A stretch of DNA of 64,000 nucleotides from a phage: the sequence record OZ413489.1; one strand, 5' to 3'. The notes under the pieces are model-generated. The model was given only the letters and a program-made list of their open reading frames with translations, did not search any database and had not been told where the DNA came from. Numbering within the stretch: the stretch's first letter is position 1; each line of letters starts with the position of its first letter. A program made the position numbers and the translations under genes. Shown piece after piece: positions 13,601 through 59,066 of this stretch.

Positions 13601-16316
13601 TGAGACTCTGGGCAATGCCGTTGACCCTTATATCATCATGACTGCACTGAGATCAAACATGGACGGGACATCCATGTCTATGCAAATTCCGGTAACAAAC
13701 GGGTACAAACGTGTTGTGATGATCATTAAGTGCGATCTGATCGGGAAGCAAGTTCTTGCAGAAAACGGGACATCCACACATCCTTTTGAGATCGCTCTGC
13801 ACTATCAGTTTGCTGACTCACCTTTTGCAGGGGATAAGAGAATATCTGATACAGACGCACAGCGTTGTAAGAAAGTATTGTTGGGTGCAGGTTGGTGGTG
13901 GTATGAGTTTGATTTAACAGACAAATTCACCGACACGTCTAAAGTTGTAACAGGACTTCGTCTAGACCTTGGCGAGAACATGCACAAAGCTGTTTGTGAT
14001 GGCACCTATGGTGACCCTACAATATACCTAAAATATGTTTCTTTTGAGCATCCGGAAGATGTTGTCTACGGTCCAAAACTGAGATTGTTTGGCAGCTGGA
14101 TTGCAAAAGATAGGGTAGGCATGGGTAAGAAGGTAAGAGGGCTCTTGGTTGATGCAGGAACAGAAGACATGCTGGTTAATGCAGTGTGGCCTGAATTACC
14201 TGGGACTCAGTGGGACAACTCAGCCAAATCTATAAACTGGTTTAACATTCATAGGGCCATGTGGACCACTAACTGCTACTTGTGGAGAGAGCTTAACGAT
14301 CAGGCCTTTGGATTCAGCGATGGTAGAAGGATGGCGATCATTTGCTGGACAACACTGCAAAGATGTTATGACCATGACTATGAGATTGGGGGCAGGGCAT
14401 GGAAAAATATCAGGGATAGAATCATAACCAATTTTGCAGACGACAACGGTGGTGGAGCACATAACTTTGGCACAAGCCGACTCATCCATTTGAACGGATC
14501 CTCAGCCTACAAGAAAGAAGGTTACTCTGGGTCTATGATCGAGTGGGGTCTGGTGAAAGATGCTCGCGTATTGATGGGCCAGCAACTTGCTGCCGCAATA
14601 GGTCCCAGCGCAGTGCAGTCGGTTAAACCAGCGTGGTTCGATATTCCATTGTGGTCACCCGGAACACCGGGAACTGCTGCAATCAACCCTACCACTGGGG
14701 ATCTAGAAATCTCCTGGGAGGACTTGAAGCAGGTCGGTGGTTGGGACAAAACAGGGTACCAGGTTCAGTGGTGGAGAGCTGATGGATCTTTAGCTGCTGA
14801 TGAGTTTGTTAAGGACAATTTCTACACTATGTCCTCTGCAAAAGCACAGCAATTATTTGGTCAGGCAACTCCGTCAACGATCACCATGTCTATGTGCTGT
14901 AAAGACAACAGGACTGGAGCTTTGGGGCCAAGGGTTGCTAAAGTTTTCTCAGGTATTAAATGGAATCTACCTGTCCAAAGTATTTCATGGAAGCAAATAG
15001 GTGATAACAAGCTGCTGGTTACCCCTGCCTGTCAGTTCAACGCAACTCTTAACGTTGATCCTGCTGTTGCGGCAAACTCAGCTAAAGCTTCTGACTTCTC
15101 TGTGTCTAACACTGCTATGGCAGATGTGAGGAAGATTGACACGCTGAACGCCAGAATTACCTGTAAAAACACTTATGGCACATTCCAGATCATCAACAAC
15201 TTCACAGATGCTGATTCTAAGGTAGTGAGGACAGCAAGCCAGACTTTGAGTTTAGGAACTCTGGCCTATGCGGCCCTGATCACTGAACAGTCGGCAACAC
15301 TCCAAGGAGGTGGTGTAGGCAAGTCCATTACAACACCTGTGTGGAAGCCAAATGAGTGGGTTGTGTTTGATTTGACTGTGGACTTCTCCAGCGATAATAA
15401 CTGGACATGGGTAAGGAATTGTTTGTCACAGTTGATGGGCGGTCCAAGCTCCGTTAGTGATAGTCACGACTCTACTGACCCGAGTGTGTTCCAGGTAGGT
15501 AAAACTCACCCAGAGACTGGAGAAACGTTGCCTGACAGGAAGTATGCTTTGGTTTGCATCTCTTACGGGAAGGCAGATGTCACCTTCTCAGGGACACACA
15601 CTTATAACGGAACCTACAACTTCTCAAGGAAGTATAGTCTCAAAGCAGGGAACATTATAGACGAGGTTGGTGTGCTGTATAATCCGGGCAACGGCATAGG
15701 GATTGTTGGTGGTAAACTGCAGATGCAGGAACCTTCTATTACCCCTTCCAACGTATCCGGGATTAGAAAGACTTGGGAAAGTAGTAATACCAACATTGCA
15801 ACAGTGGATGCCACCACAGGACTGGTAACATTTAAAGCTACTGGGAATGTCACCATAAAGTTTGTAGTTACAGATGATGCAGGGCGCAAAACGTCTTCAA
15901 CATCTTTTACTGTCAAACAGATGGCACCACAGTGGAGAATGTGGATAGGTACAGCAACAAACGGGGCATACCCTAATCCGGCAGGTACTTCTGGTATGAA
16001 GACTTTCTCTACAAGCAAACCGATGGAGTACGGCAGCGGTCCTAAGGTAGGGCAGATGGTGTACTTTGGTGCGTATATTCCTGAAATTATAGGGCTTCCG
16101 AGAAGTCAGCTTCAGTTGCTGTTTGGGGCTGGTGTTGACGATCTTGCCACTTTCGGGTATAGCGACAACATCGAGGCTGCAAGGAGTTCAGGATGGGTAG
16201 GGTTCAGAATGGAGTCTGGAAAGGAAGGCAGGATTCTAGGGACAGCCTCTATAGGTGTTATGTTCCCTGGTGACCAGCAGTATCGTCTAGAAGCCTACGC
16301 AACCTTTTCTCGTTAA
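10680..16316 (+). CDS. Large virion-associated protein with bacterial Ig-like (Big_2-type) repeat
   Basis: 1878 aa single ORF; near the C-terminus a segment (SNVSGIRKTWESSNTNIATVDATTGLVTFKATGNVTIKFVVTDDAGRKT) has the Big_2 pattern; last gene of the late block. Confidence 0.65.
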   Translation: MLPIPLLKLGRHFLDKRGGIKELAVLSYPIDNSDGTSNTVSYVNSLAILFDDGQLNITGYNRFGECRTGDLDTINYPNEAAWNVDHVWRADRAFVIRTFDNKFFYIGCTAGLIGSEAAGGNDVCVREWTPLPEQIVTGLHLDTHPERLVEVMGGVNNTVWVIAAPEADGMLHLYGSGNNTYGSLHVDKSQHATPVKIGETSESPETGPWKNPRINCEVHDNSVIFGGPNGFWIAGYDFLRNNSKNTLVYPAEHVTLDQFKGIPVGETWKGFMCGPNGAIIATERMHKPDDQQLVNVFYGQDVWGDDTWRSLNITYTHEVIMARGYGTSGIFFNNGTKQYRGFSRNLCNDIGAQSANNSPRANFIHYQALATAKYVEQRLPVSWTESVYFQGIHREGFLGTFTVVNGKLWWSGIPRGSFAGSNNLFGGRLNSQGFTEIPENWYKNVPVDSWGIEDIFDVNGVSNVSNIYIGDTVKMKLKPQPEGATFIIDKIELVNAAGTVVTDANYQFSTNWNHGGANEVVVTQYNRNINRRGLYSIKITYHDKHGTGRTCTTRTLNWNTIVPAYPSNGKWHTVGRNKQFHVNDTVYFGLNGTQPAVEGDTSYMVRLHRMDAGSVTYDVTQEIYDQRRATYDNIVKTQALWKFNPNGKGGKMLQVNEQNGTSLTVHEHPDPWPDPGKPHPGARTLKIVSHDAGYFGIRWEATVRYVDGTTNNIGITLGGTSEDNSLKIAYTPRGISIDNMDVVRNGYGDVNVKVTLGEHLGGERIIMYAFDHDPRTNGTYANQAWSYLINAPEPNTKEFYYGMKRDVCKKTGTHDWIAICVKDERTAWDEPVNRWFIGIPTRSDKYVAEYIVCMGGTNLNMCWNEDVNKYSDYDYMRDYSCNLWFNQTTGYPPRQARVNPAIFTDTQVFLTKQANEVQTFKNNYDPNKWFYNCYGAFFWGPGELPGGGSCLNEATYASDYIMGQVKKYKIIPGPETLGNAVDPYIIMTALRSNMDGTSMSMQIPVTNGYKRVVMIIKCDLIGKQVLAENGTSTHPFEIALHYQFADSPFAGDKRISDTDAQRCKKVLLGAGWWWYEFDLTDKFTDTSKVVTGLRLDLGENMHKAVCDGTYGDPTIYLKYVSFEHPEDVVYGPKLRLFGSWIAKDRVGMGKKVRGLLVDAGTEDMLVNAVWPELPGTQWDNSAKSINWFNIHRAMWTTNCYLWRELNDQAFGFSDGRRMAIICWTTLQRCYDHDYEIGGRAWKNIRDRIITNFADDNGGGAHNFGTSRLIHLNGSSAYKKEGYSGSMIEWGLVKDARVLMGQQLAAAIGPSAVQSVKPAWFDIPLWSPGTPGTAAINPTTGDLEISWEDLKQVGGWDKTGYQVQWWRADGSLAADEFVKDNFYTMSSAKAQQLFGQATPSTITMSMCCKDNRTGALGPRVAKVFSGIKWNLPVQSISWKQIGDNKLLVTPACQFNATLNVDPAVAANSAKASDFSVSNTAMADVRKIDTLNARITCKNTYGTFQIINNFTDADSKVVRTASQTLSLGTLAYAALITEQSATLQGGGVGKSITTPVWKPNEWVVFDLTVDFSSDNNWTWVRNCLSQLMGGPSSVSDSHDSTDPSVFQVGKTHPETGETLPDRKYALVCISYGKADVTFSGTHTYNGTYNFSRKYSLKAGNIIDEVGVLYNPGNGIGIVGGKLQMQEPSITPSNVSGIRKTWESSNTNIATVDATTGLVTFKATGNVTIKFVVTDDAGRKTSSTSFTVKQMAPQWRMWIGTATNGAYPNPAGTSGMKTFSTSKPMEYGSGPKVGQMVYFGAYIPEIIGLPRSQLQLLFGAGVDDLATFGYSDNIEAARSSGWVGFRMESGKEGRILGTASIGVMFPGDQQYRLEAYATFSR

Positions 16317-16328
16317 CAAGGGGGTAAA

Positions 16329-16360
16329 TAAAAAGGGGCCAAACGGCCCCTTTCTTTTTA
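16329..16360. terminator. Bidirectional rho-independent terminator
   Basis: aaaaa-ggggcc-aaac-ggcccc-tttcttttta: hairpin flanked by A-tract and T-tract, between convergent genes ending at 16316 (+) and 16364 (-). Confidence 0.75.
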
Positions 16361-16363
16361 TAG

Positions 16364-16564
16364 TTAGTAATACTCCCAACATGCCCCATCTTCAGACGGC
16401 TTGACGCGCTTACCTTTATGGTCAACATAGGTATAGCCACAACCTTCACAAATAACAGGTGCTGCATAACCTTCCTTCCACTGCTTCTCCGTGATCAATC
16501 CTTTCAGATCTCCGCAGTCACGACCAAACAACTCTTCAGAACAGTCTTTACAAAAATCAGCCAT
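16364..16564 (-). CDS. Small zinc-ribbon protein
   Basis: 66 aa with CxxC ... CxxC pairs (CKDC, CEGC). Confidence 0.5.
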   Translation of the reverse strand: MADFCKDCSEELFGRDCGDLKGLITEKQWKEGYAAPVICEGCGYTYVDHKGKRVKPSEDGACWEYY

Positions 16565-16633
16565 CTCTATCAGTCTCCATATTTAACCAATCTATATTAC
16601 ATATTGCCGAAGAAACAGTATTTCATTTCATTA

Positions 16634-16852
16634 TCACAGATCTCCAACAACTTCCCAAATACCCCAGTGAGCATCTATATCCTTGATAAAGTATCTTTCT
16701 CCACGGTTTGTCCACACACCTATCCCAACTTTACCATCTATCCCATTGTATACATCTGCCTCATACTCTTTGCCCGGTGTAAAGTGTACACCCATCATAA
16801 GGGCTGTTATTCCATTAGGATTTTTAAATTTAACAAATTTTACTTTGCTCAT
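16634..16852 (-). CDS. Hypothetical protein
   Basis: 72 aa ORF; adjacent to the next gene (stop/start 1 bp apart). Confidence 0.45.
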   Translation of the reverse strand: MSKVKFVKFKNPNGITALMMGVHFTPGKEYEADVYNGIDGKVGIGVWTNRGERYFIKDIDAHWGIWEVVGDL

Positions 16853-16853
16853 A

Positions 16854-17183
16854 TTACTTAATCCTTGCAGTTACAGTAGCGCTATACCCCATGTAGTTAT
16901 GAGACATAAAGAATGTAAGCCCTTTAAGTTCAGGATTCTTTCTAAGAAATCGTTTCAATTTTCGAATGCAATTAACACCATGATCATAGTTTGAGAAATT
17001 AAATTTAATACCCTGCTCCATCATAGTGCACACTTCTTCATGGGTATGCCATTGTCTATCGTGGTCACAAAACCAGTAACCAATACCTTCTTTTTCTTGG
17101 ATATGCAATCCCCAAAATACTTTATGCATTGGATATTTTGGTTTTCTACCATGATAATGTAGTTTAATATTCACATGTGCCAT
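16854..17183 (-). CDS. Hypothetical protein (His-rich)
   Basis: 109 aa ORF in a co-directional array. Confidence 0.45.
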   Translation of the reverse strand: MAHVNIKLHYHGRKPKYPMHKVFWGLHIQEKEGIGYWFCDHDRQWHTHEEVCTMMEQGIKFNFSNYDHGVNCIRKLKRFLRKNPELKGLTFFMSHNYMGYSATVTARIK

Positions 17184-17351
17184 TTTTTGTTACTCCGTTC
17201 TGTATCTGTGATAATGAGAATAGCAAACTGGGGTGTGTGCTGTCAACAACATTTTTAAGCGTTTTGGGGAAGTTTTTTGAAAGGTGGGTGTAATCACAAG
17301 AGAGGGTGGAGTTATTGAAGGCACAGGCCTCTTTTGAGGCCTTAAAGTCGA

Positions 17352-17732
17352 TTATGACACTTTGACGTAGCGCTCTGACAGAGCTGGAAAGCCAAAAGCA
17401 GTACCTATACTACCGTATGCTACCCACCATTGAAGTTCATCGTGACACCATTTTCCGATCAGGAAGGTGCTGGGGTAGCGGGTCAGTATTTTGGCATAAG
17501 CTTTAGGGTCTGCATCTTCTGGGATAATGATACTTGGAACATCTTTGTTATGGCCACAGCAGCAGTTTAGAGTTTTCAATCCTGCCGCCCATAGACTCAT
17601 GATAGGCTTAGCCATGCACTTATCAAGGCACACACGTTTTTTGCCGTCACGGAGCTTTTTAGGCACATCAACGATAACATTTTGATGCTTGGCACCTTTC
17701 ACTTTCCAATTATAGGATTTACACTTGCACAT
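17352..17732 (-). CDS. Hypothetical Cys-rich protein
   Basis: 126 aa; several Cys clusters (CKC, CLDKC, CCCGHN) suggest metal binding; function not assignable. Confidence 0.45.
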   Translation of the reverse strand: MCKCKSYNWKVKGAKHQNVIVDVPKKLRDGKKRVCLDKCMAKPIMSLWAAGLKTLNCCCGHNKDVPSIIIPEDADPKAYAKILTRYPSTFLIGKWCHDELQWWVAYGSIGTAFGFPALSERYVKVS

Positions 17733-17762
17733 TTAATCAGTCTCCATCTAGAAAGCAATACT

Positions 17763-17933
17763 TTACTTAAAATCTTTGTCACCTATTACGATTGCACGAA
17801 TCCACTCATTGTGATGTTCAATGGCGGTAAGGTGTAACATAATGCAGTGATTGTCATTACCAAACACGGTGCGGTAAGCTTTAGCAGCACCATGATATAA
17901 CTTCCACATCAGGTAATGATATCTTCGCCTCAT
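17763..17933 (-). CDS. Small hypothetical protein (56 aa)
   Basis: Not in the >=60 aa track; ATG overlaps the upstream TGA stop (ATGA coupling) of the HAD gene. Confidence 0.35.
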   Translation of the reverse strand: MRRRYHYLMWKLYHGAAKAYRTVFGNDNHCIMLHLTAIEHHNEWIRAIVIGDKDFK

Positions 17934-18409
17934 GGCTCTTTCTCCGGTTCAGGATCTGGGTAATCTTCAATAATAAAGGGCCATCCGTTCCGCTTAGCCT
18001 CAGACTTGTACTCAATCTCCTTCATTGCAAACTCTAACTGATTTTTAGCCGGAATACATGCCGGAGAATCATCAACCCAGATATCTGGGTAGATATCAAA
18101 CTGCGCCAGGTAGGCTGCCTTCTGAACACCGCCAGTATAAAACACACCAACATCGAGCTCCTTGCGCCAATACTCAATGTCCACATTGTCTTGAGTAATG
18201 AATCGGAAAGTCACAAGGTATACTGTCCACCCCTCCTTCTTCAGGTCCCTGATCAGGCGGGAGAAGATGAAAGGGCTCGCATTAAACGTTCCATCAAAGT
18301 CAATGGCAATGATGTGCGTGCCGTGGCGAGTCTCATATGGATTGCTTGTGGTAAGATTGCTGTAGTTAAAAGGGACCTCTTCCCCGCAGTAGCTGTAGTC
18401 CATATTCAC
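17930..18409 (-). CDS. HAD-superfamily phosphatase (candidate nucleotidase)
   Basis: 159 aa; HAD motif I IAIDFDGTF (DxDGT) near the N-terminus. Confidence 0.65.
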   Translation of the reverse strand: MNMDYSYCGEEVPFNYSNLTTSNPYETRHGTHIIAIDFDGTFNASPFIFSRLIRDLKKEGWTVYLVTFRFITQDNVDIEYWRKELDVGVFYTGGVQKAAYLAQFDIYPDIWVDDSPACIPAKNQLEFAMKEIEYKSEAKRNGWPFIIEDYPDPEPEKEP

Positions 18410-18681
18410 ACCTTCTCGTTGATAAATTTACGGGCGGTTTGGTGAGTTGTTTCTGCTGTCTTCAGAATAATATTAATTTTATCGTCAAGATCATTCATCT
18501 CAGCAGTTAATTCAGGAATCTCTCCGGCATGCATAGTGAAATCATACATAGACATGCCAAGAATCTCATTGATTCGGCGGTTGCATTCTGCAGCACGCTG
18601 GTTCATTTTCCAAGCTAACACCAGAGCCTCTTGCGTAGCCTCCAGTGCAAAGTCTAATACGTCAGCTTCTTCTTTCGTCAT
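18406..18681 (-). CDS. Hypothetical protein (helical)
   Basis: 91 aa ORF, stop overlaps the next start. Confidence 0.45.
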   Translation of the reverse strand: MTKEEADVLDFALEATQEALVLAWKMNQRAAECNRRINEILGMSMYDFTMHAGEIPELTAEMNDLDDKINIILKTAETTHQTARKFINEKV

Positions 18682-18736
18682 CTCAGTCTCTCTTGTTGTA
18701 TTGTTGGTAGGTGCATGAACACCTTATATCTCACTT

Positions 18737-19303
18737 TTATTCAAACTGCAATAGTAAGTCCACCACCGCGCTAGGTCTGTCAACAAATTCCCCAGGTCCA
18801 CATGCCCACAGAGGGTATCCGTCTACATACCGCCAAATCCAACCTGCGGTGTGGAGTTCGAGCAGGGCAGTGCCGTCCTTACTGTCAACCACTCTTTCCC
18901 ACAGTGTCGGGCAGCGAAGCTTGAGGATCGGATCCCCTCCCTTATACCCATCCATGTAGATACCCATTGCAAAGTTCAGCATCATCTTTTTGTGCACTGA
19001 TCTTTTACTGAGGGTACTCATCACTTCCTCTTTGTGAATGTTTGTAAGCTTCTCCTTGGCTACCCGCAGATCGTTGCAACCATTGTTCAGCAGATCTTCC
19101 AGACACTTGATCCGAAGGTCGTGAATGTCTTTGTCGTGTACCGTTGGCACAGGGTCGTAGCGGTATAGCACTGTTGATACAAGGTTGCTCGGGTGTGGGT
19201 CTGACAGCAACCCATAACCCCAATACTCTTCTGTATCTGAAAGGACAAGACACCCAATGTCTCTGTCAAGCTTTCCTGTGTTGTAAGCCACATTGACCGC
19301 CAT
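18737..19303 (-). CDS. Hypothetical protein
   Basis: 188 aa ORF in the co-directional array. Confidence 0.5.
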   Translation of the reverse strand: MAVNVAYNTGKLDRDIGCLVLSDTEEYWGYGLLSDPHPSNLVSTVLYRYDPVPTVHDKDIHDLRIKCLEDLLNNGCNDLRVAKEKLTNIHKEEVMSTLSKRSVHKKMMLNFAMGIYMDGYKGGDPILKLRCPTLWERVVDSKDGTALLELHTAGWIWRYVDGYPLWACGPGEFVDRPSAVVDLLLQFE

Positions 19304-19305
19304 GA

Positions 19306-19551
19306 CTATAGCTCCACTAGCAAAGTGCTTTCAAAGTGCCGTTCATGCAAACCGTTGTAAGGGACCACTTCTACAACGCCATCACGGACATATGGGGCCA
19401 TCATGGTGGTATAATCTCCAAACGGGTTGGTATTGTCACTAACCACAACCACCTTCTGCCCTTCCTTGGCAGAGTGCCAAATAGATCTGCACTTCATCAG
19501 GTGTTCGAGAGCTCCAGGTAAAATTTTGTTACGTTCTTTACGGGTCTTCAT
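19306..19551 (-). CDS. Hypothetical protein
   Basis: 81 aa ORF, tightly packed. Confidence 0.45.
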   Translation of the reverse strand: MKTRKERNKILPGALEHLMKCRSIWHSAKEGQKVVVVSDNTNPFGDYTTMMAPYVRDGVVEVVPYNGLHERHFESTLLVEL

Positions 19552-19997
19552 AACAGATATAGCTCCTTATGAAAGTGGTCTTTTAATTTCTCACTGAGAA
19601 ACTTCTTGATACCTTCCTCTAAAGTGTTTTCGATGTAGTCCAGCTTAACTGCTTCGATGGACATATCATAGATTGCCAGCTCTAAGCTGTCAAGTCCCAT
19701 CATAGCATGAACCATAAGATTTTCATCTTCAGATACATTCAGGGGACTTCCTATAACATCTGGAGGCAGAATAGTTTCCCAATTATTCTGGGTGGTAGTT
19801 CTCCCGCCATCTACTTTACGGCGCAGTTCGAATGTGTTCTTAGTGTAGAACACTTCATAAGAAACGATACGACTGTCACTCTCATAATAAACGAAGTTCA
19901 GGTAGGAGCCTAGCCGCAGTCGGCAAACTTCCACCCCAAACCATTGTTTCTTATAAGAATTCAGGCTAATGCTGTCGCATTCACGTTTGCTCAACAC
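19548..19997 (-). CDS. Hypothetical protein
   Basis: 149 aa ORF; start overlaps the downstream gene (ATGA). Confidence 0.5.
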   Translation of the reverse strand: MLSKRECDSISLNSYKKQWFGVEVCRLRLGSYLNFVYYESDSRIVSYEVFYTKNTFELRRKVDGGRTTTQNNWETILPPDVIGSPLNVSEDENLMVHAMMGLDSLELAIYDMSIEAVKLDYIENTLEEGIKKFLSEKLKDHFHKELYLL

Positions 19998-20013
19998 GGC
20001 TATCTCCTTTTTG

Positions 20014-20247
20014 TTAATCTTCGTAAATCAGGATTTCTGCTTTAGGTTTTCGTGCTTTCAGATCCAGCTCTATCCAATGCACCATGGCTGTTTCAAGAAA
20101 AACAGCCTGGATGCATCCGTCCTCAGCGTGCCCTACCAACATAACAAGATCTTCACCTTCGTCATCTGCATCACGAACATACAGAATCTCTCCAGATTCA
20201 AAGTCTTTCACAACCTGATTGCTGGATAATTTACGAATTTTTGCCAT
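20014..20247 (-). CDS. Hypothetical small protein
   Basis: 77 aa ORF. Confidence 0.45.
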   Translation of the reverse strand: MAKIRKLSSNQVVKDFESGEILYVRDADDEGEDLVMLVGHAEDGCIQAVFLETAMVHWIELDLKARKPKAEILIYED

Positions 20248-20248
20248 A

Positions 20249-20512
20249 TCAGAAACCCTCTAAAAAGCTCTTGTAGAAAACAATCTCAGTATCCACACCA
20301 GTCACAATCTTGTCGTTCCTGATTTCATCAGTAAGATAGGTGTCAAAACGCAGAACCTGTGTGGTATTGTCGCACATCCACTCAGCTGTGACCATGGCGA
20401 AAATCTTAGCATCCTCATTATCTGGTGTAAATGTTACCACCTCACCACATTTAAATTTTTCGATAGGTTGCGTGTTAGCTTTCGGTTCTGCAATAGTGAT
20501 TTTCGTGGTCAT
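20249..20512 (-). CDS. Hypothetical small protein
   Basis: 87 aa ORF, adjacent to neighbours. Confidence 0.45.
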   Translation of the reverse strand: MTTKITIAEPKANTQPIEKFKCGEVVTFTPDNEDAKIFAMVTAEWMCDNTTQVLRFDTYLTDEIRNDKIVTGVDTEIVFYKSFLEGF

Positions 20513-20769
20513 TACTCTTCCTCCATAGTTTCACCAAATACTTCGATACGAGCATCGAGCTCTGTTGCTTTCAGCTCCCCAACAAAATCTTTTAGTTCTT
20601 TCTCGTCCAGATCGTAAGCCCACACACAAGAAGAACATGCAGATTTCACAATCAGCAGCGTAGATACACGGCCTGACTCTGTGATCATGCTCACAATGGT
20701 TCCCACAGGGAACGTGTTGATAGCTTTTTTAACTGGGCGTTCAGATTTGATTACTACTTCTGTTGCCAT
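20512..20769 (-). CDS. Hypothetical small protein
   Basis: 85 aa ORF. Confidence 0.45.
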   Translation of the reverse strand: MATEVVIKSERPVKKAINTFPVGTIVSMITESGRVSTLLIVKSACSSCVWAYDLDEKELKDFVGELKATELDARIEVFGETMEEE

Positions 20770-20784
20770 AAATAACGTCCTCTC

Positions 20785-22266
20785 TTACTTAGCGTACTCG
20801 ATTAATTCCACAGTTTTCCCAAAGCTCGGGATATAATTTTTATTATACCCTTCGGTGAGAACCCATAAAGTATCGTACTTTTTCCACTTGTTGTCAACAG
20901 CCTTTTGTTCAAAGTTATGCTCAAAGTATAGGTCGGTCAGGACGATGACATCTTTTGCATTTGGTATGTTGGCATCCAGATACTCGAACACGCAAGCAGC
21001 TGTTGTGCCCCATGTTGAGTGGACCTCATAGTTAATCATCTCATCGATGTTACCGCGAGTGTATACTTTAACCTCTCCAACCTCCGTTGACCAACAGAAC
21101 ATAGTAACCTTAAACTCTTTATACAAATTGCACAACCCGGTGATCTCATTGAACATTTTCTTTAAAGTTCTTTGTGAGATCGACCCAGAAACGTCTAAAG
21201 CCACTACAATATCTATAGTGTTTTCCGGATTACGACCAGGAACAATAACGTGTTGATTCTTGTTTATAGCTCCAACTTTTCGCATTGTGGTGGTCAAAGA
21301 CCCAGATCGGCGACCAGGTTTTCTGTAGGTTAACTCAGCCTTTCTTTTAGATAACATACGTTGCTTAATAATATCTATATAATTGATTACAGGCTTGCCT
21401 CTGTTTTTGACAAACTCGCGCACCGCCTCGGGGCAACGACCTCCTGAAGCTTGCATTGCTGCTTCCAACATGTCACCAGAGTCCTGCATGGCCTGATCTT
21501 TGTCAGATTGACTGATTACTGGTTGCGGCTGATCATACCCCATAGCCTTTCCAAGATCATCACTAGTGCCACCGTTCCCGCTCATGTGATCATCGGTTTG
21601 TCGTTTATCTCCTTGGGAGTTCTCACCTTTACCGTTCTTACTTTTACCGTTATTCTGATCTCTTTGCTTATCAAGAACTGCATAGACGTTCTCAGCAATC
21701 CATCCATGAAACCTCATGTCGCAGTAGCAATTAGCTAAGAAGCCAAAAGGCTTACCTTTTACGAACTCAGTGCTTTTCCCCTTCGGGAAGAAAACACAAG
21801 GAGGCTTACTAAAGTCAACCACAAGACCTGTGTTGATAACGTGATCACAAGCAATATTGAACAGTTCCGGCTCAAAGCTTTTACCACGGACCAGATGATC
21901 ACAGATAATATGCCCCACCTCATGTGACAGAAGAAAGGCCACCTCTTTCACAGATTTTGGGGAATAGAAAACCTCAGCCATCTCAAACTGCTTGTCAGTC
22001 AGAGATGCTTTAAGAATGGTTTTACGCTCATCCGCCAACCCCATAATGAACTCAGGGCTGTAGTAGATGCGTTTATGGTCGGTTGCCATGGTGGAGCACC
22101 ATGTGTGGTTTTCTACGAACTGCAACCCTGACAGTAGTGTGCCATAAAACGGCAGCTTTTCAAGGAGATACATACGTGCAGCCTGCAACATTCTCAGGGC
22201 ATCATCTTTCTGTGAGGCAATGATTTCTGAACTTCTGCTATCCATTAAAACTCCAGAAGGGGCCAT
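20785..22266 (-). CDS. VWA-domain protein with N-terminal metallopeptidase-like domain
   Basis: 493 aa; zincin-like motif HEVGHIICDH in the N-terminal half; MIDAS-like VVALDVSGSIS (DxSxS) in the C-terminal half. Confidence 0.7.
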   Translation of the reverse strand: MAPSGVLMDSRSSEIIASQKDDALRMLQAARMYLLEKLPFYGTLLSGLQFVENHTWCSTMATDHKRIYYSPEFIMGLADERKTILKASLTDKQFEMAEVFYSPKSVKEVAFLLSHEVGHIICDHLVRGKSFEPELFNIACDHVINTGLVVDFSKPPCVFFPKGKSTEFVKGKPFGFLANCYCDMRFHGWIAENVYAVLDKQRDQNNGKSKNGKGENSQGDKRQTDDHMSGNGGTSDDLGKAMGYDQPQPVISQSDKDQAMQDSGDMLEAAMQASGGRCPEAVREFVKNRGKPVINYIDIIKQRMLSKRKAELTYRKPGRRSGSLTTTMRKVGAINKNQHVIVPGRNPENTIDIVVALDVSGSISQRTLKKMFNEITGLCNLYKEFKVTMFCWSTEVGEVKVYTRGNIDEMINYEVHSTWGTTAACVFEYLDANIPNAKDVIVLTDLYFEHNFEQKAVDNKWKKYDTLWVLTEGYNKNYIPSFGKTVELIEYAK

Positions 22267-22278
22267 TGGCCCCTGTCA

Positions 22279-23256
22279 TTATTTAACGTGTTTGAAAATA
22301 CCTGCCAACTCGGTCATTGTCATGCGGGTGGTCTTCATAAGATCTGTCATAGCTTTCTCCATAATTGGAGATACTACCATAAAGTTTCCTTTAGTGAAAC
22401 CTTTATTCCAGTCGGTCACCAACAGTGGTTTAAGTCCAGCTCTGAGACGTTCACCAGTTAAAGCACAGCATTTGCGAATATACGAACTCTTAAATTGGCT
22501 GAACGACAGATCAACTTTCATACCTGCATCGTAGAACGTTTGACAATAGAAAGTGTAAGCCTTAGCAATCTCAACATCATCAGGCAGTGCAGGAACCTCT
22601 TCTGCAATCCCCTCTTCGACCTCCTGAGGCTCTTTTTCCTCTTCAGAGTTCTGTTCTTCAACTTCTTCTGTCACAGTCTCGTTCACGATGTCTGAAATGT
22701 GTTTGTTGGCTGCACGATCAGCCATGAAATTTTTAAAGTCCTGCATTGGTGACATATCTTCTTCCTCTTCGTCAAATAGTGCTAGTTTATCTTCTTCTGT
22801 CCCGTATTGCAAGATGAAATCTTCAAAAGTATAATAACCTTTCAATTTCTCCATACGCTCTTCGCTCAGGTGGAGCATCATCTGCTGGACAATTTTTCGA
22901 TCAGTTTTGTCTTTAATCAGGATTGCAGTCTTTTTATCTACCAGACAGTCTTTCAGAGCATTGCACCTCAACCCTACCACACAACAATTGTCAATTGCGT
23001 AAGGACCTTCATCATCTATACGCTCCAAAGATGGGTAGAAAGGATTCCCCAGCCCGTTTTCATCTGTGTGCATGTCAAAAGGTATAAGGGTATAGTCGCA
23101 TACTCCATCTCCTAAAAGTTTTTTACCAAATAGGAGGTATTCTTCCCATGACAGGTCGAACTCTATATCTCGTTTCCGTGCGTTATTCTGTTTGCGTCTA
23201 TATTTTTTGAGCAAGCGCTCTAACTCTTCTGGTGTATAATATTTTTCAAGATTCAT
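22279..23256 (-). CDS. Hypothetical protein with possible HNH-like motif and acidic linker
   Basis: Track ORF runs to 23322, but a minus-strand promoter sits inside its first 60 nt, so the start is more likely the Met of MNLEKYY (about 23256). Segment ERIDDEGPYAIDNCCVVGLRCNALK resembles an HNH core; long E-rich stretch. Confidence 0.45.
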   Translation of the reverse strand: MNLEKYYTPEELERLLKKYRRKQNNARKRDIEFDLSWEEYLLFGKKLLGDGVCDYTLIPFDMHTDENGLGNPFYPSLERIDDEGPYAIDNCCVVGLRCNALKDCLVDKKTAILIKDKTDRKIVQQMMLHLSEERMEKLKGYYTFEDFILQYGTEEDKLALFDEEEEDMSPMQDFKNFMADRAANKHISDIVNETVTEEVEEQNSEEEKEPQEVEEGIAEEVPALPDDVEIAKAYTFYCQTFYDAGMKVDLSFSQFKSSYIRKCCALTGERLRAGLKPLLVTDWNKGFTKGNFMVVSPIMEKAMTDLMKTTRMTMTELAGIFKHVK

Positions 23257-23287
23257 GAGTCGTCTCTCGTGCTCTGTAAGTGAAGAA

Positions 23288-23316
23288 ATCGTATCAATTG
23301 TCTCAACAGATGTCAA
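23288..23316 (-). promoter_or_regulatory. sigma70-type promoter (minus strand)
   Basis: Minus-strand reading TTGACA-17 bp-TACGAT, heading the minus block. Confidence 0.45.
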
Positions 23317-23329
23317 CATCAAAAACGTG

Positions 23330-23358
23330 TTGACTTTACTCTAACTCTACAATATAGT
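23330..23358 (+). promoter_or_regulatory. sigma70-type promoter (plus strand)
   Basis: TTGACT-17 bp-TATAGT, about 40 bp before the ATG at 23399; back-to-back with the minus promoter. Confidence 0.55.
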
Positions 23359-23398
23359 GCACCCATTCGAAAGAAAACTAACATAGGAGCACTTACTT

Positions 23399-24298
23399 AT
23401 GGCAAATCTTAACAGTTTTAGTACGCGGTGGAAACAGGACATAACAACCAATCTTTCAGCTGGGGACATCCTTTCTGCAATTTACGAGGCTTTAGATGAT
23501 AAAGCTACTTCAAAAGCGGTTTGTACCAACCCGCTAATTCCTGTAGTGATGAAGGTTATTGAGCGTAGATTGGTATCTGGGTCTGATAAGTGGACATATT
23601 TAGATAATGAAGGACACACCTATTCCAATGGGTACGTCGATATAAAAGTAGAATACGCGGTATCATACCGCCGGAGCGGTTCTGTAACTTTCAACTTCTC
23701 TGGAGGTTTTCGATCTCTGGCTACCTCACCTTTTGTTTCCTCAGAGGAGAAGTATGAGCTGCCATTTCTTTGGATGATGGCTAACGCGACAGGAAAAACC
23801 CCCGTTAGCATCCGAGTAAAATACAACTACAACGGATCTAGTAAGATCTATGCCGAAAGTGTCTCAGCAAGTTTTTATTTTGTGATGGGGGATGGAATCC
23901 TCAAACATATAAAGATGTGCGATATGCATGATGTTATAAATGAAGTGACTGATAAGAATGTTCTAGTGAAAGACCTCAACAATTTTTATACACCCGGAGA
24001 CTATTACGTCAGCCGTCCACTGTGCATCTTTAATGCCGCACACCCTCTAGGTGAGTATTTGATCGCCAATAGCGATATTGCCAATAACCGCTTCGAGGTA
24101 GCAAGAGTTCAGAATGAGGTATTGACATCTTGCAAGAGCGGTGATAAGTTTACCGAAGAAGAGATGGGTGTTTTAGAAATGATGGGATATAAGTGTAGCC
24201 TTTGGGTAGATGAGGTGTTTAATGATTGCATCTATGGACAGGATATTTACCCATTAAAGAAGTATACTGATACAAGTTTAATTTATGCAAGGGTTTGA
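23399..24298 (+). CDS. Hypothetical protein
   Basis: 299 aa; RBS ataggag; first gene after the divergent promoters. Confidence 0.55.
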   Translation: MANLNSFSTRWKQDITTNLSAGDILSAIYEALDDKATSKAVCTNPLIPVVMKVIERRLVSGSDKWTYLDNEGHTYSNGYVDIKVEYAVSYRRSGSVTFNFSGGFRSLATSPFVSSEEKYELPFLWMMANATGKTPVSIRVKYNYNGSSKIYAESVSASFYFVMGDGILKHIKMCDMHDVINEVTDKNVLVKDLNNFYTPGDYYVSRPLCIFNAAHPLGEYLIANSDIANNRFEVARVQNEVLTSCKSGDKFTEEEMGVLEMMGYKCSLWVDEVFNDCIYGQDIYPLKKYTDTSLIYARV

Positions 24299-24573
24299 CT
24301 ATGATGAAGGCATGTGGTAATGTATATTACGTCGGTGAACATGTTCAGGCAGACAGTGTGTGGAAATCTATTAAGTCCACCACTGACGATGCCTTTCTGA
24401 GTGGACTATGTTTCCCCAATCCGGGAGACATCCTCCCTCATCCTGGAGATTTTGTTGTCAACAAGATGGACGGTTATACCGTGTGCCTGATGGTTGAAAA
24501 AATCTTTTTAGACACTAGACACAATCACCGTCTTGTGTTAAAATTTCAAGAATGTAAAATGACAATTGCCTAA
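24295..24573 (+). CDS. Hypothetical protein
   Basis: 92 aa; start overlaps upstream stop (ATGA). Confidence 0.45.
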   Translation: MTMMKACGNVYYVGEHVQADSVWKSIKSTTDDAFLSGLCFPNPGDILPHPGDFVVNKMDGYTVCLMVEKIFLDTRHNHRLVLKFQECKMTIA

Positions 24574-24586
24574 GGAGACCTTACCG

Positions 24587-24943
24587 ATGTCTAAAGTTAC
24601 TTATCGTGCAGCTATTTACTGCAATGAACACCCAATCAACAATGATGGTCACTGCCTTTTTAAAGAAAATCAGTTGGGATGTATTGTCCTCCCTGATGAA
24701 GGGAAAGGTTATCTGATTGCATTGACAGGGTTTGAACCTGAAGCTCTGGAAGCCAATCTGGACTACCTGGTAGAAGAGGGTGCTGCAGACCTGGTTGCCA
24801 ATGGCTTCTCCATAAGCCTTGACGAAGTGGAGCGCTTCATGGGCAATTACCGTGTAGTGCGTGAGTTTACTATCGAGGTGGAAACTCCAGAGTGGGGTAG
24901 CCATGAAACTAATGCCGAAGAAAAAGAAGAGGAGGTAGAATAA
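24587..24943 (+). CDS. Hypothetical acidic protein
   Basis: Track ORF from 24566; the ATG at 24587 is preceded by RBS aaggag. Confidence 0.45.
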   Translation: MSKVTYRAAIYCNEHPINNDGHCLFKENQLGCIVLPDEGKGYLIALTGFEPEALEANLDYLVEEGAADLVANGFSISLDEVERFMGNYRVVREFTIEVETPEWGSHETNAEEKEEEVE

Positions 24944-25200
24944 TGAAAGTGCAGATCTTGACTAATGCCGAGAAGATGTTTATTGAAGATACACCTTTTG
25001 AAGCTGGTGAGCTCCAGTTCATTTATTTTGTTGACTTAGATAAGGTGTTCCCTGCACTGAATCTTGGTCTGGATGAAGTTCCTCATAAGGTTTTGTGCCA
25101 AGTTGTTCGTGCATTAGCGGCAGATGGGGAGTTCCACACCCTTGAAGATGTCCAGACCTACGGGTATCTTGAACTACAACGAGAAGAAGAGGTGGACTGA
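24943..25200 (+). CDS. Hypothetical protein
   Basis: 85 aa; coupled start (ATGA). Confidence 0.45.
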   Translation: MKVQILTNAEKMFIEDTPFEAGELQFIYFVDLDKVFPALNLGLDEVPHKVLCQVVRALAADGEFHTLEDVQTYGYLELQREEEVD

Positions 25201-25202
25201 TA

Positions 25203-25583
25203 ATGGCCCGGTGGAAGACAACAGTTGACCTTCATGATCAGTGGTTAGGACGCATCACTGAAGACGGGAAGCTAGTGGAGTGGGACAATAAGCATGTTAG
25301 CGAGTTGGCAAGTATTGTGGCTGGCAAGTTACGCTCCAAGTTCCCTGAACAACTGGATCCTGATAGTTCAAAGTTCGATCCTGAGTTGGAGGATGTTGTA
25401 TACTACTTCGACACCGTTGATGACTACGACGCGTGGTTTGCAGCACGGGAGCTTTACCCACAAGGCTCTGCTATGCGTCAGATGGAAGAAGATTATCCTC
25501 CGTGTGAGCAATTCAATAGTGCAATGACTTGCCTCTATGATTGGGCAGATAAGAACCTTGTCTGGATTCGGACTGCATTTTAG
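25203..25583 (+). CDS. Hypothetical protein
   Basis: 126 aa ORF. Confidence 0.45.
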   Translation: MARWKTTVDLHDQWLGRITEDGKLVEWDNKHVSELASIVAGKLRSKFPEQLDPDSSKFDPELEDVVYYFDTVDDYDAWFAARELYPQGSAMRQMEEDYPPCEQFNSAMTCLYDWADKNLVWIRTAF

Positions 25584-25627
25584 TGGGCAGGAATGGCGGC
25601 AAGGATGCTGCTTAAGGAGTAGTAGAG

Positions 25628-25897
25628 ATGTTATACCAGCAATATGAACTTCGTGCAGAAAAAGAGTTAAATTTTGACAAAGATATTCACAGATATTATT
25701 ATGGGAAAGTTAGAGGGCAAGCAAGAAAGTGTACTCCAACACTCTTTTATGCCAGCAGACGACTAGCGCCAGAAGAGGCAACAGCAGAAAGGGTTGCGTA
25801 CAACTGGAGAGTCACGTATGATATTGACAGATCCGATGTGATATCTGTTTTGGAAAACTTTGAAAACACTTACACACAAGTAGAGGACTTTTACTAA
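25628..25897 (+). CDS. Hypothetical protein
   Basis: 89 aa; stop overlaps the ATPase start. Confidence 0.45.
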   Translation: MLYQQYELRAEKELNFDKDIHRYYYGKVRGQARKCTPTLFYASRRLAPEEATAERVAYNWRVTYDIDRSDVISVLENFENTYTQVEDFY

Positions 25898-27081
25898 TGT
25901 CAAGAAACGTATTCGAAAGTGGTCAAATCACTGTCCGTGAGTTGCCAGCTATTATTCAGTTTGCCCAACGTCATAGCCGATCTGTCCTAATTTTGGGACC
26001 AATGGGTGTGGGTAAAAGTCAGGTGATGAAGCAGATCGCTGATAATATGTTCGGTGAGCGAGATGACAACCTTGTTGACGTGCGACTGTCAGATAAAGAT
26101 CCTGCCGACTTATCTGGGCTACCTATCCCTGTAGAGGCGGATGGAACTACACGTACAGTGTTTGCAATTCCAGAATTTTGGCCTGCGGATCCTGACTGGA
26201 GCGGAATTATCTTTCTGGATGAGCTCACTCATGCAGATAACTACCTGCAAAAGGTTGCAATGCAAATTATGCTTGACCACAAGTGCGGTACCTATGCATT
26301 CCCTAAGGGTTCTGTTTTTGTGGCTGCTGGTAACCGTTCTACAGATGGTGCGGTTCTTTCGGCGCTCGAAGCCCCTCTGGCTAACCGTTTTATCATTGTA
26401 GAGGTTACAAGCAATGCAGAGGTGTTTATTGAGGACTACGCATTCCTTAATGGGGTGCACTCCTCTGTAATTGGATATCTGAAAAGAGTTCCATCAGCTA
26501 TCGATAATTATGAGGCCATGGCTGAGATTAATTGTCCATCTTTTGCCACACCGCGATCTTGGGTTGCTGCATCTGATATCTTGCACGATTTTGACAGCGG
26601 TATTATTTCTGACGCTATGGCCCGTGTTCTTCTGCAAGGTGCTATTGGTCACACTGCAGCGGTAGAGATCTGGACATACCACACCAAGAAACGCAATTTA
26701 CCTGAAATCGGTCGGATTATGGCAGGTGGTTGCAAAGAATACGTAGGTCCTAAGCAGCCAGACATTTTGTGGATTCTTGGATCTGAAGGTTGTATCGCTA
26801 TTCGTAATATGATGGAAAATGCAAGTATCTCAGACGAAGATCTTGTCAGCTGCGTGGCAAACTTCCTCGATTTCCTTTGGGAAAACTTCAAGGACGAGAA
26901 CCGAGATTTTGTATTCTCAGTCTTTATGGCGATGATGAAACCTAATGCCTTAGGAAATGCCTTGCTTATCGGCAAAGGGCGTGACAAGATTGTTGCTCAG
27001 CTGATCAAAGCATACCCAAACCTGATGAAGATTGTAAAAGAGTTTGGTGAAGAGTTTAGCGCCATTTTGGCTAAAGCTTAA
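25897..27081 (+). CDS. MoxR-like AAA+ ATPase
   Basis: 394 aa; Walker A LILGPMGVGKSQ, Walker B IIFLDELTHA, and the short single-AAA architecture typical of MoxR/CbbQ-type ATPases. Confidence 0.75.
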   Translation: MSRNVFESGQITVRELPAIIQFAQRHSRSVLILGPMGVGKSQVMKQIADNMFGERDDNLVDVRLSDKDPADLSGLPIPVEADGTTRTVFAIPEFWPADPDWSGIIFLDELTHADNYLQKVAMQIMLDHKCGTYAFPKGSVFVAAGNRSTDGAVLSALEAPLANRFIIVEVTSNAEVFIEDYAFLNGVHSSVIGYLKRVPSAIDNYEAMAEINCPSFATPRSWVAASDILHDFDSGIISDAMARVLLQGAIGHTAAVEIWTYHTKKRNLPEIGRIMAGGCKEYVGPKQPDILWILGSEGCIAIRNMMENASISDEDLVSCVANFLDFLWENFKDENRDFVFSVFMAMMKPNALGNALLIGKGRDKIVAQLIKAYPNLMKIVKEFGEEFSAILAKA

Positions 27082-27520: not shown

Positions 27521-28021
27521 GTGAAAATTAAGATCTTTGCTATTATTTTGAGCGCATTTTTATCGCTGCCTGTTGTTGCAGCACCAAAACAAAAAGTATA
27601 CCATACTTGCAAGCCATCAGATACTAAGGAAAACATTCTAGCATGCAATATCTACAGGGAAGCTAGAGGGGATGGCACGATGGGTATGCTGGCATCTGGG
27701 TTTGCCACCCTAAACAGGAAATCTCACCCCAAATACCCAGACACCATAAGAAAGATTGTCTACCAACCTAACCAGTTTTCGTGGACAAACCACGGCAAAA
27801 CTTTTAAGGTGACAGAAAAAGATTCATGGGATCACGCTAAAAGTCTTGCAAAGATGCTTCTAAAGGTCTATAATAACAACCATGTTGCATACATGGCTAT
27901 GGACATAACAGGTGGAGCAACACACTACCATACAACCAAAGTACGACCGAAATGGGCAAAAAAGATGCAGAGGACAGCTCAATTCGGGAGTCATATCTAC
28001 TACAAGGAGCGCAATAAATGA
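27521..28021 (+). CDS. Secreted SleB-like cell-wall hydrolase (candidate lysin)
   Basis: 166 aa; GTG start after RBS tggag; N-terminal signal-like peptide MKIKIFAIILSAFLSLPVVAAP; core residue pattern (YREARGDG ... NQFSW) resembles the SleB/Hydrolase_2 family. Confidence 0.6.
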   Translation: MKIKIFAIILSAFLSLPVVAAPKQKVYHTCKPSDTKENILACNIYREARGDGTMGMLASGFATLNRKSHPKYPDTIRKIVYQPNQFSWTNHGKTFKVTEKDSWDHAKSLAKMLLKVYNNNHVAYMAMDITGGATHYHTTKVRPKWAKKMQRTAQFGSHIYYKERNK

Positions 28022-28563
28022 TTGTAAACAGTAATGAAACTAAAGCAGTACTAACCGGAAATATGGAGGTCACCAGGGGCTCAATTTCTCTGAACAAAGA
28101 GACTTTTGGGCTAATCATTAAAGGGATTTACGAAGATAAGGTGCTGGCAAGCTGCCGTGAACCAATCTTCAATGCTGTGGACTCTCATGTTGAGTCTGGA
28201 CGGGGTGATGTACCGATCATCATTCACTCCCCTACAGACCTTGAACCATACTTCTTTGTGCAGGACGTTGGATTGGGTATGTCAGAAGAGATGGTCCGCA
28301 ACACTTTCATGAACCTCGGGGAGTCAACCAAGCGCAACAGCAACGCTCTGGTAGGTAATAAAGGTGTAGGTTCAAAGGCCCCGTTCAGCATGGTTGACCC
28401 TGCAGATGTGGTTAGTGTGCCATACCAACACAATAGCGCCAAGTGCCGTGCATGCCGCTATGAGATTGTGGTAGCTCCGGAAGCACGCAAAGATGGAGAC
28501 CCTATTGAATATGTAGTTGATCGTGACGGTAACACTATCGACATTCTTTACGAGGAGGCGTAA
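28018..28563 (+). CDS. Short GHKL-superfamily ATPase-domain protein
   Basis: 181 aa; Bergerat-fold motifs: N-box EPIFNAVDS, G1 box VQDVGLGM, G2-like GNKGVGSKAPF; too short to carry a transducer or dimerisation domain. Confidence 0.6.
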   Translation: MIVNSNETKAVLTGNMEVTRGSISLNKETFGLIIKGIYEDKVLASCREPIFNAVDSHVESGRGDVPIIIHSPTDLEPYFFVQDVGLGMSEEMVRNTFMNLGESTKRNSNALVGNKGVGSKAPFSMVDPADVVSVPYQHNSAKCRACRYEIVVAPEARKDGDPIEYVVDRDGNTIDILYEEA

Positions 28564-57797: not shown

Positions 57798-58010
57798 TCA
57801 TAGTCTACCACCCCTGAACTCTTCGTGCTCAGGCATAATAGAGAACCAGATATCTACGATGTCTTCCCACGTCAGGTCATCAGCCTCAGGATCTACCTGG
57901 AGCGAAGATGAAGAATCTTCAGAATCGAAGTTTTCCTCTTGCACTGGCTCAGTCAAGGGACATATAGTCACTCCTTTGGATGTCTCTTCAGATGCATGTG
58001 TGTTTATCAT
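57798..58010 (-). CDS. Hypothetical acidic protein
   Basis: 70 aa; ATG overlaps the stop of the upstream micro-ORF. Confidence 0.45.
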   Translation of the reverse strand: MINTHASEETSKGVTICPLTEPVQEENFDSEDSSSSLQVDPEADDLTWEDIVDIWFSIMPEHEEFRGGRL

Positions 58011-58096
58011 GTTCCACCCGTGAGTATTCCGGCAACAGCTGCTATGGACGTAATGATCATCAGGATCACCACTAAAACTTCGGACAATGTTCTCAT
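58007..58096 (-). CDS. Small hydrophobic peptide (29 aa)
   Basis: Minus-strand ATG after RBS tggag; MRTLSEVLVVILMIITSIAAVAGILTGGT; sits downstream of the minus-strand promoter at 58129-58158. Confidence 0.4.
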   Translation of the reverse strand: MRTLSEVLVVILMIITSIAAVAGILTGGT

Positions 58097-58128
58097 TGTG
58101 TACTCCATATTCTACAAACTATGTGTGG

Positions 58129-58158
58129 ATACTATCACTGGATCGGTAATGTGTCAAC
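58129..58158 (-). promoter_or_regulatory. sigma70-type promoter (minus strand)
   Basis: Minus-strand reading TTGACA-17 bp-TAGTAT. Confidence 0.5.
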
Positions 58159-58346: not shown

Positions 58347-58370
58347 AGGTGTCTTAAATTTGATATTTTG

Positions 58371-59011: not shown

Positions 59012-59023
59012 CTCAAGTCTCCT

Positions 59024-59056: not shown

Positions 59057-59066
59057 CTCTTTGTCA

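Follow-up and report, generated by a model that had tools for sequence, protein, structure and literature searches.

A pair of genes on opposite strands of a phage genome, one encoding a protein with a zincin-like domain and a VWA domain and the other an AAA+ ATPase of the MoxR class, was analysed computationally. Both lie in a 64,000-nt stretch of sequence record OZ413489.1 (the window), whose source is an rV5-like Escherichia coli phage of the genus Vequintavirus; more than 100 rV5-like Escherichia phages are 96.6–98.5% identical to it over the surrounding 8 kb, and its ATPase matches the one in phage V5 at 100% identity. The two genes probably encode the halves of one machine, the phage MoxR–vWA–metallopeptidase module of the N4 gp24/gp25 type. 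An earlier note, made from the letters alone, had described two open reading frames (ORFs) about 3.6 kb apart on opposite strands, and the ORF list contains both at those coordinates, with 3,651 bp between their start codons (3,630 bp when counted from 22266). The features of the locus are collected in Table 1.

Published work and GenBank annotation already cover the components, the promoter pair between them and the type of module. In Table S3 of the 2013 rV5 paper, gene 4 is entered as 'MoxR - ATPase', and gene 12 appears as a conserved hypothetical protein with DUF2201_N (PMC3606486). Annotated relatives label the first gene 'ATPase' or 'MoxR ATPase', and BASEL phage JeffSchatz and other relatives already annotate the VWA gene as 'putative metallopeptidase' or 'VWA-like domain containing protein'. 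What this analysis adds is a clade-specific inversion of a near-universal gene order, a conserved terminator-like hairpin before the VWA gene, and mislabels to be fixed. In the rV5 table the VWA gene is split into genes 12 and 13, a 441-aa ORF and an overlapping 81-aa ORF (PMC3606486), which combined have the length of the intact 486-aa ORF of the window. Comparison of the two records suggests that the split is a frameshift or sequencing error, which would have masked the VWA domain.

Table 1. Positions of the genes and sequence features at the locus, in window coordinates
Feature	Position	Strand	Basis or remark
Zincin-like + VWA gene (rV5 gp12 homolog; N4 gp25-like)	20785..22245	-	486 aa; Pfam, VWA fold, Shine–Dalgarno (SD) sequence
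MIDAS residue D438 (T-D)	20926-20940	-	invariant column
MIDAS residue T414 (G-T)	21001-21012	-	invariant column
MIDAS DxSxS (DVSGS)	21181..21195	-	invariant columns, 24-sequence alignment
HEVGH (HExxH zinc-binding/catalytic motif)	21910..21924	-	followed by H117 and D134 (21832-21858 region)
GC hairpin GGGGCC-AAT-GGCCCC	22258..22274	-	free energy (dG) -14; between Srd-like gene stop and VWA SD
Srd-like 'anti-sigma factor' gene (rV5 gp11)	22279..23256	-	first leftward gene; PHROG Srd/sigma70-decoy matches, annotation, rV5 paper
Leftward sigma70-like promoter	23288..23316	-	TTGACA-17-TACGAT, extended -10 TG
Inverted repeat	23312-23334		perfect 7-nt; arms are the two -35 boxes of the divergent promoters
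Rightward sigma70-like promoter	23330..23358	+	TTGACT-17-TATAGT
Six small/unknown genes (rV5 gp10 to gp5)	23399..25897	+	between promoter and ATPase
MoxR-class AAA+ ATPase gene (rV5 gp4; N4 gp24-like)	25897..27081	+	394 aa; motifs, profile, fold model
Walker A (GPMGVGKS)	25996-26019	+	ATPase motif
Walker B (IIFLDE)	26206-26223	+	ATPase motif
Sensor 1/Arg (AAGNR)	26323-26337	+	ATPase motif
PLANRF	26374-26391	+	ATPase motif

Domain composition of the two proteins

The longest ORF of the VWA gene runs to 22266, as described earlier, but the likely start is 22245. This start was favoured because the ATG at 22245 is preceded by GGAG at a distance of 6 nt and is the one annotated in related records, and because the ATG at 22266 sits within the GC hairpin. 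Two Pfam domains were found in the protein, DUF2201_N ('putative metallopeptidase domain'; E=4e-28, 99.2 bits against a gathering cut-off of 23.2) followed by DUF2201 ('VWA-like domain'; E=3.6e-11, 43.7 bits against 26.4), and all 24 members of an alignment of homologs sharing 23–82% identity match both. Across this alignment the HExxH histidines H108 and H112 are invariant, as is D134, with E109 and H117 at least 90% conserved; the residues of the metal-ion-dependent adhesion site (MIDAS), D351, S353, S355, T414 and D438, are all invariant. Fold searches identified a true VWA fold, and the VWA domain is nearest to the CoxE type. The Pfam domains, invariant motifs and fold thus bear out the earlier observation that HEVGH and a VWA MIDAS, here intact, are combined in one protein. 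Matches of the N-terminal domain to zincin families were all below threshold (M48 in 9 of the 24 members, SprT-like in 2 and DUF5700 in 1). A single-sequence search of the PDB with the VWA protein gave no match and its profile gave marginal integrin I-domain matches only, while a search of NCBIfam returned nothing useful for either protein.

In the ATPase, residues G37, G39, K40, S41, D108, E109, N146, R147 and R164 are invariant among 28 aligned sequences. A structure model (pLDDT 85) was compared with the PDB using Foldseek, and ranks 1–19 were all NorQ or CbbQ2 (E 1e-8 to 2e-6, template-modelling score on the target 0.58–0.65), with other AAA+ clades lower. In the DSSP assignment of the model, strands 75-81 and 84-90 come ahead of the Walker B strand (102-108), and the sensor-1 strand is preceded by short strands at about 129-134; these are candidates for the helix-2 insert and the pre-sensor-1 hairpin, respectively. 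The best PDB match of the family profile was to midasin AAA modules (E=9e-10); the single sequence alone retrieved P-loop-level matches to ClpB, ClpC and p97 only. Twelve of the 28 aligned relatives, at 31–35% identity to the window protein (phmmer E about 1e-44), match AAA_5 (2.4e-9), AAA_3 (3.1e-8) and sometimes bpMoxR. The link to the Pfam MoxR families is transitive, because these relatives pass AAA_3 and AAA_5 and the window protein itself does not. The MoxR-type assignment of the earlier note therefore stands on fold, profile and relatives, and fails on the protein's own Pfam score. Placement in another AAA+ clade lacking a VWA partner was not seen, the closest proteins, NorQ and CbbQ, being VWA-partnered. 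Sequence and model together support a divergent MoxR-class AAA+ protein, predicted to be hexameric and active as an ATPase.

Both proteins carry stray labels in public records. PHROG phrog_1314 and many RefSeq phage records (NC_016071, NC_024134, NC_022323, NC_031063 and others) name the VWA–zincin protein 'HNH endonuclease', and no HNH domain was detectable in Pfam scans of the window protein and the alignment members. In SSBI34 the ATPase goes under the name 'ribosomal protein uS19', and Bacillus phage Internexus has it as 'putative transcription factor'. These labels look like propagated mis-annotations.

Gene order, a probable inversion and the hairpin before the VWA gene

A tblastn search of 50,697 phage records gave near-identical genus distributions for the two proteins: Escherichia (216 records with the ATPase, 214 with the VWA protein), Pseudomonas (108 and 104), Pectobacterium (26 and 26), Cronobacter (17 and 17) and Achromobacter (17 and 17). 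The pairing of the two families that the earlier note had assumed is matched by this co-occurrence. Sequence identity also falls in parallel, with values for the ATPase and the VWA protein of 50/45% in PVP-SE1, 35/34% in CR8 and 27/23% in PEV2.

To describe gene order outside named phages, 80 IMG/VR loci around ATPase relatives were scanned with hidden Markov models of both families. The VWA gene lies directly downstream of the ATPase on the same strand in 68 of the 69 loci with usable downstream sequence, and the median ORF-to-ORF gap of adjacent pairs is 72 bp. Ten loci gave no VWA match; nine of these end no more than 184 nt past the ATPase, and in the remaining one (L037) the sequence runs on for 1,067 nt. 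Only two IMG/VR cases are divergent, an rV5-like and a BIS47-type contig. The same-strand order ATPase then VWA was also found in the Certrevirus phages CR8 and SSBI34, Aeromonas phage 2L372X, cyanophage S-TIM54, Thermus phage phiYS40, jumbo phages of three genera, a 578-kb megaphage contig, two bacterial contigs and N4-like metagenomic contigs. N4-like PEV2 has it with one small gene between the two, which are annotated there as N4 gp24-like and gp25-like. Callisto and one podovirus-like contig have both genes on one strand, but about 3 kb apart. The opposite-strand layout is limited to Vequintavirus, Seunavirus (PVP-SE1), Avunavirus (Av-05), Henunavirus (Hena1) and the BIS47-type phage. The arrangement in the window is thus unusual, as had been noted, given that the same-strand order is the rule in the other lineages sampled; 'operon' as a name for that usual order is inexact, a terminator-like hairpin and a promoter normally lying between the genes.

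Comparison within this group points to how the split layout may have arisen. In the Certrevirus-like order, leftward helicase, SleB and, further on, Srd-like genes precede a divergent promoter, beyond which the ATPase and VWA genes are read rightward. In the rV5 clade, leftward VWA and Srd-like genes precede the divergent promoter, and the ATPase, one further gene, SleB, rII and helicase follow rightward. The VWA flank and the SleB–helicase flank keep their relative orientation, and the central block alone is flipped. A single inversion of the segment from the Srd-like gene through the promoter to the ATPase would convert the Certrevirus-like order to that of rV5, with one breakpoint in the ATPase–VWA spacer. 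A model in which the ATPase operon alone was flipped was dropped, since SSBI34 shows an Srd-like gene inside the inverted block. Because all outgroups have the ATPase followed by the VWA gene, adjacency is taken as ancestral and the split as derived; judged from gene order, a single origin in the common ancestor of the five genera would be the simplest account of it.

After such an inversion the rV5-like proteins could in principle act alone or with other partners. The genes do sit on opposite strands, 3.65 kb apart and in different transcription units, and the original rV5 record has the VWA gene split into its 441-aa and 81-aa ORFs. Against this, all five split-type genera retain both genes with catalytic and MIDAS residues intact, the divergence rates of the two proteins match, the region showed no other VWA or MoxR gene, and the adjacent-type pairs are themselves already transcriptionally insulated. 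Loss of the partnership is considered extremely improbable.

This insulation would come from a hairpin in front of the VWA gene. A survey was made of 64 environmental ATPase–VWA spacers, which all belong to one syntenic lineage and are not independent of each other. A strong GC hairpin (dG of -12 or below) is present in 62 of the 64, compared with 2 of 57 and 7 of 35 control spacers of the same loci. The best dG has a median of -16.7 kcal/mol in the spacers and of -6.7 in shuffled sequences (median z -4.9), and 55 distinct stem-loop sequences occur among the 64. At least five T within 9 nt past the GC core make 54 of the hairpins terminator-like, and a sigma70-like promoter follows the hairpin in 47. 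Within the Vequintavirinae, a GC hairpin with a T-run lies just upstream of the VWA SD in adjacent-type genomes (CR8, SSBI34 and contig L008) and likewise in the split-type PVP-SE1, BIS47-type, Av-05 and Hena1 genomes. By its homologous position, the window hairpin corresponds to the terminator-like hairpin found before the VWA gene in almost every lineage. Two points count against this evidence: the environmental spacers amount to one lineage, although the Vequintavirinae and 2L372X cases are independent of it, and the window hairpin has a poor T-run.

Since a hairpin, usually with a promoter, precedes the VWA gene, the pair is typically two insulated transcription units and rarely a simple operon. 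In CR8 a promoter-like site (11/12; L004 11356-11407) ends exactly at the 5' arm of the hairpin. It is possible that transcripts from a site of this type would begin in the 5' arm and escape termination, with read-through from the ATPase being stopped, so that the element would act as a terminator/promoter insulator. A promoter-like site ending at the hairpin start was also observed upstream of the VWA gene in SSBI34, Av-05 and 2L372X. It is plausible that the adaptor/protease is dosed below the hexameric motor. The inversion may have been tolerated since the two genes were already separate transcription units, and the VWA gene would have retained its own upstream hairpin; both genes would still be expressed from a shared, early, sigma70-driven divergent control region, if the timing presumed for rV5 is correct.

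Control region, neighbouring genes and related records

Counted from the divergent control region, the VWA gene comes second on the leftward side, behind the Srd-like gene, and the ATPase seventh on the rightward side. The back-to-back promoters at 23288–23358 were found where the earlier note had put them. The leftward promoter is kept at the same position in two other genera, PVP-SE1 and BIS47-type (TTGACA-17-GATAAT, 11/12), and the PVP-SE1 record annotates the site as a promoter; the rightward one is supported in rV5-like phages only and is not conserved in PVP-SE1. The rV5 paper reports bidirectional promoters lying between gene 10 and gene 11, along with transcription units running 10-1-238-164 and 11-26, which places the two genes in different units (PMC3606486). 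Counting against the promoter calls, sigma70-like matches across the region are no commoner than chance, with 20 found and 17 in shuffled sequences. Strand composition of the window tracks the direction of transcription: GC skew and AT skew are negative in the leftward-transcribed blocks (16000-24000 and 58000-64000) and positive elsewhere, a pattern that fits the four transcription units described for rV5.

The longest ORF of the Srd-like gene starts with a TTG at 23322 and would overlap the leftward promoter; related records use the ATG at 23256. The Srd-like protein also gives PHROG matches labelled HNH endonuclease and endonuclease VII. On the rightward side, the last small gene (25628-25897, + strand, 89 aa) overlaps the ATPase start (TAATG) and is thereby translationally coupled to it. 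This ORF was rejected as a conserved third component, as no homolog was detectable beside the ATPase in PVP-SE1, the BIS47-type locus or CR8. The best sigma70-like match of the region, TTGACA-17-TATTAT (11/12), lies inside it at 25674-25702 on the + strand and is either an internal ATPase promoter or a chance match.

Downstream of the ATPase, an in-frame fusion of rIIA and rIIB gives a 181-aa ORF (28018-28563, junction about 28390-28420) made of the first ~126 aa of rIIA and the last ~55 aa of rIIB. Compared with JeffSchatz, the deletion is ~2.62 kb and falls across a 31-bp stretch of similarity; the junction is spanned by none of 119 related phage records. Either a natural rII deletion, reminiscent of T4 r1589, or a collapse of the assembly at the short repeat could account for it. 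A further anomaly concerns 16 'Campylobacter phage' records (MG065644-MG065682; stated host Campylobacter jejuni), which are 96.6–97% identical to the window over 8 kb. Such identity is unexpected across so different hosts and suggests mislabelling or contaminating coliphages.

A putative ATPase–protease module and competing explanations

In the mechanism proposed here, the ATPase would form a hexameric AAA+ ring, by analogy with NorQ–NorD, CbbQ–CbbO and Rea1–MIDAS, onto which the VWA domain of its partner would dock. The MIDAS metal site would grip an acidic residue of a client protein, ATP hydrolysis would remodel that client, and the fused HExxH domain would then cleave either the client or the adaptor itself. 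Both components of the module are present in the window genome and are homologous to the N4 gp24/gp25-like proteins of PEV2 and to jumbo phage members. The immediate upstream position of the ATPase on the same strand, a typical rather than definitional feature of the module, is absent in the window.

The closest described module is that of the group 2.2 jumbo phages, for which Iyer, Anantharaman, Krishnan, Burroughs and Aravind reported a MoxR AAA+ ATPase and a vWA cochaperone fused to an N-terminal metallopeptidase, read as a chaperone–cochaperone pair (Iyer et al. 2021, Viruses 13:63; PMC7824862). Its two-protein architecture is that of the window, the proteins are homologous, and members were recovered with both window queries; the jumbo phage genes differ in being adjacent and often beside structural genes, where those of the window are on opposite strands in an early region. 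In the N4-like phages (Schitoviridae), gp24 and gp25 (vWFA) are two of 14 core genes and are reported as middle transcripts (PMC4193335). The PEV2 homologs match the window ATPase with E 1.7e-21 and the VWA protein with E 6e-20, and the pair is likewise conserved as such in a non-structural genome region, but at ~23–27% identity, with both genes on one strand and at most one gene between them, and in a podovirus background. Bacterial DUF2201_N/DUF2201 genes with AAA_3/AAA_5 neighbours, seen in a 1.25-Mb contig and a metagenome-assembled genome, have the Pfam architecture of the window with the ATPase upstream, and differ in their cellular context and their ~22–26% identity. The p618 (MoxR) and p892 (VWA) proteins of Acidianus two-tailed virus (ATV) are the cited precedent for a viral chaperone role; this virus-encoded MoxR and VWA pair, from an archaeal virus, has no peptidase domain.

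The bacterial MoxR ATPase–VWA adaptor pairs NorQ–NorD and CbbQ–CbbO are 17–21% identical to the window proteins. NorD and CbbO lack a zincin domain, the clients of both pairs are metalloenzymes (NOR and Rubisco), and in the structure model the phage ATPase has an additional C-terminal helical domain of ~120 aa compared with NorQ and CbbQ. NorQD serves Fe insertion into NOR and CbbQO the reactivation of Rubisco, and by comparison with these and with CoxDE the phage pair could be a chaperone for metal-cofactor insertion or enzyme activation, in which HExxH binds a metal and no protein is cut. NorQ and CbbQ as closest structures, the CoxE-type VWA domain, the metal-dependent phosphohydrolase gene that begins the ATPase operon of CR8, SSBI34 and PVP-SE1, and the nucleotide-metabolism enzymes that neighbour the pair are all in keeping with such a role. 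The near-invariant catalytic Glu of HExxH points instead to hydrolysis; moreover, no one candidate client enzyme is conserved beside the pair across lineages, and the rV5 region has no phosphohydrolase gene. This explanation is regarded as very unlikely. A chelatase-type pair (BchI/BchD, CobS/CobT) was rejected, as no chelatase family match was found in Pfam or NCBIfam, with BchH/CobN not sought window-wide; the BchD VWA domain was merely one among many generic VWA fold matches.

The surroundings of the pair bear on what such a machine might act upon. Arguing from the ATV p618/p892 precedent, Iyer et al. (2021) predict that the module takes part in virion assembly, with proteolytic processing (PMC7824862), so that it would be an assembly chaperone that matures structural proteins. 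In the jumbo phage genera Eneladusvirus and Alcyoneusvirus the pair indeed follows structural and head-completion genes, and in S-TIM54 a virion structural protein gene lies just downstream. In the rV5-like phages, by contrast, it sits in the early region with Srd, rIIA/B, a Dda-like helicase and sigma70 promoters; in the N4-likes it adjoins RNA polymerase, helicase and polymerase genes, and gp24/25 have been reported as middle transcripts; and its neighbours in the environmental lineage include exonuclease, radical-SAM and thymidylate synthase genes, so that DNA-metabolism neighbours are shared by the last two groups. Neither gp4 nor gp12 is flagged by mass spectrometry in the rV5 virion proteome table (PMC3606486), although a chaperone need not be in virions. 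For the window phage a role in virion assembly is considered unlikely. Given the mixed genomic context and the lack of a virion flag for gp4 and gp12, a general role in proteostasis or remodelling, exerted before virion assembly or outside it, is favoured.

Genes for other proteostasis factors were observed next to the pair: an Hsp20 gene immediately upstream in cyanophage S-TIM54 (L093 4476-7108), and Hsp20, ClpS and ClpP genes flanking it in the 578-kb megaphage contig (L086 1592-8591). This is a recurrent proteostasis link in unrelated lineages. The megaphage neighbours, together with the early or middle genomic context in several lineages and the action of bacterial MoxR–vWA proteins in conflict systems (PMC7159879), could also speak for a host-takeover or counter-defence protease that, early in infection, extracts a host defence, stress-response or nucleoid factor and cuts it. 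No PADLOC matches were obtained, though PADLOC models defence rather than anti-defence proteins, and the core status of the pair in N4-likes and its presence in bacteria without an obvious conflict context argue for a housekeeping role. A dedicated host-takeover protease is judged highly improbable. Membership of a defence system was rejected, no PADLOC match being above noise, and so was a vWA–MoxR ternary conflict system (VMAP/beta-propeller/FtsH; Kaur et al. 2020), the neighbouring window genes having no such Pfam domains; the bpMoxR model was touched by five distant ATPase relatives only.

Several observations weigh against the proposed ATPase–protease module. Literature searches covering function and transcriptomics in rV5-like and N4-like phages found no experiment on it in any phage, and the genomic context of the pair is inconsistent between lineages. 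Two fold searches were swamped by VWA matches and left the zincin fold of the N-terminal domain without structural confirmation. The window ATPase scores below the Pfam gathering thresholds, with 16.7 bits for AAA_5 against a cut-off of 22 and no match to AAA_3.

The module of a MoxR ATPase and a VWA–metallopeptidase is very widespread, occurring in rV5-like coliphages that are therapeutic candidates, all N4-like phages, jumbo phages, cyanophages and thousands of metagenomic viruses. A further reading, distinctly unlikely as it stands, is that the insulation reflects a need for the two parts of a pan-phage AAA+-driven protease to differ in dose or timing, and that its client would be a host protein or a non-structural phage protein, acted on early in infection, and not part of the virion; if true, such a client would tie the module to host takeover, counter-defence or replisome-linked proteostasis. 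The conserved hairpin offers a handle on the dose of the adaptor/protease relative to the motor. The rV5 clade represents a natural experiment in which the two genes are uncoupled, so that each may be deleted or mutated without a polar effect on the other.

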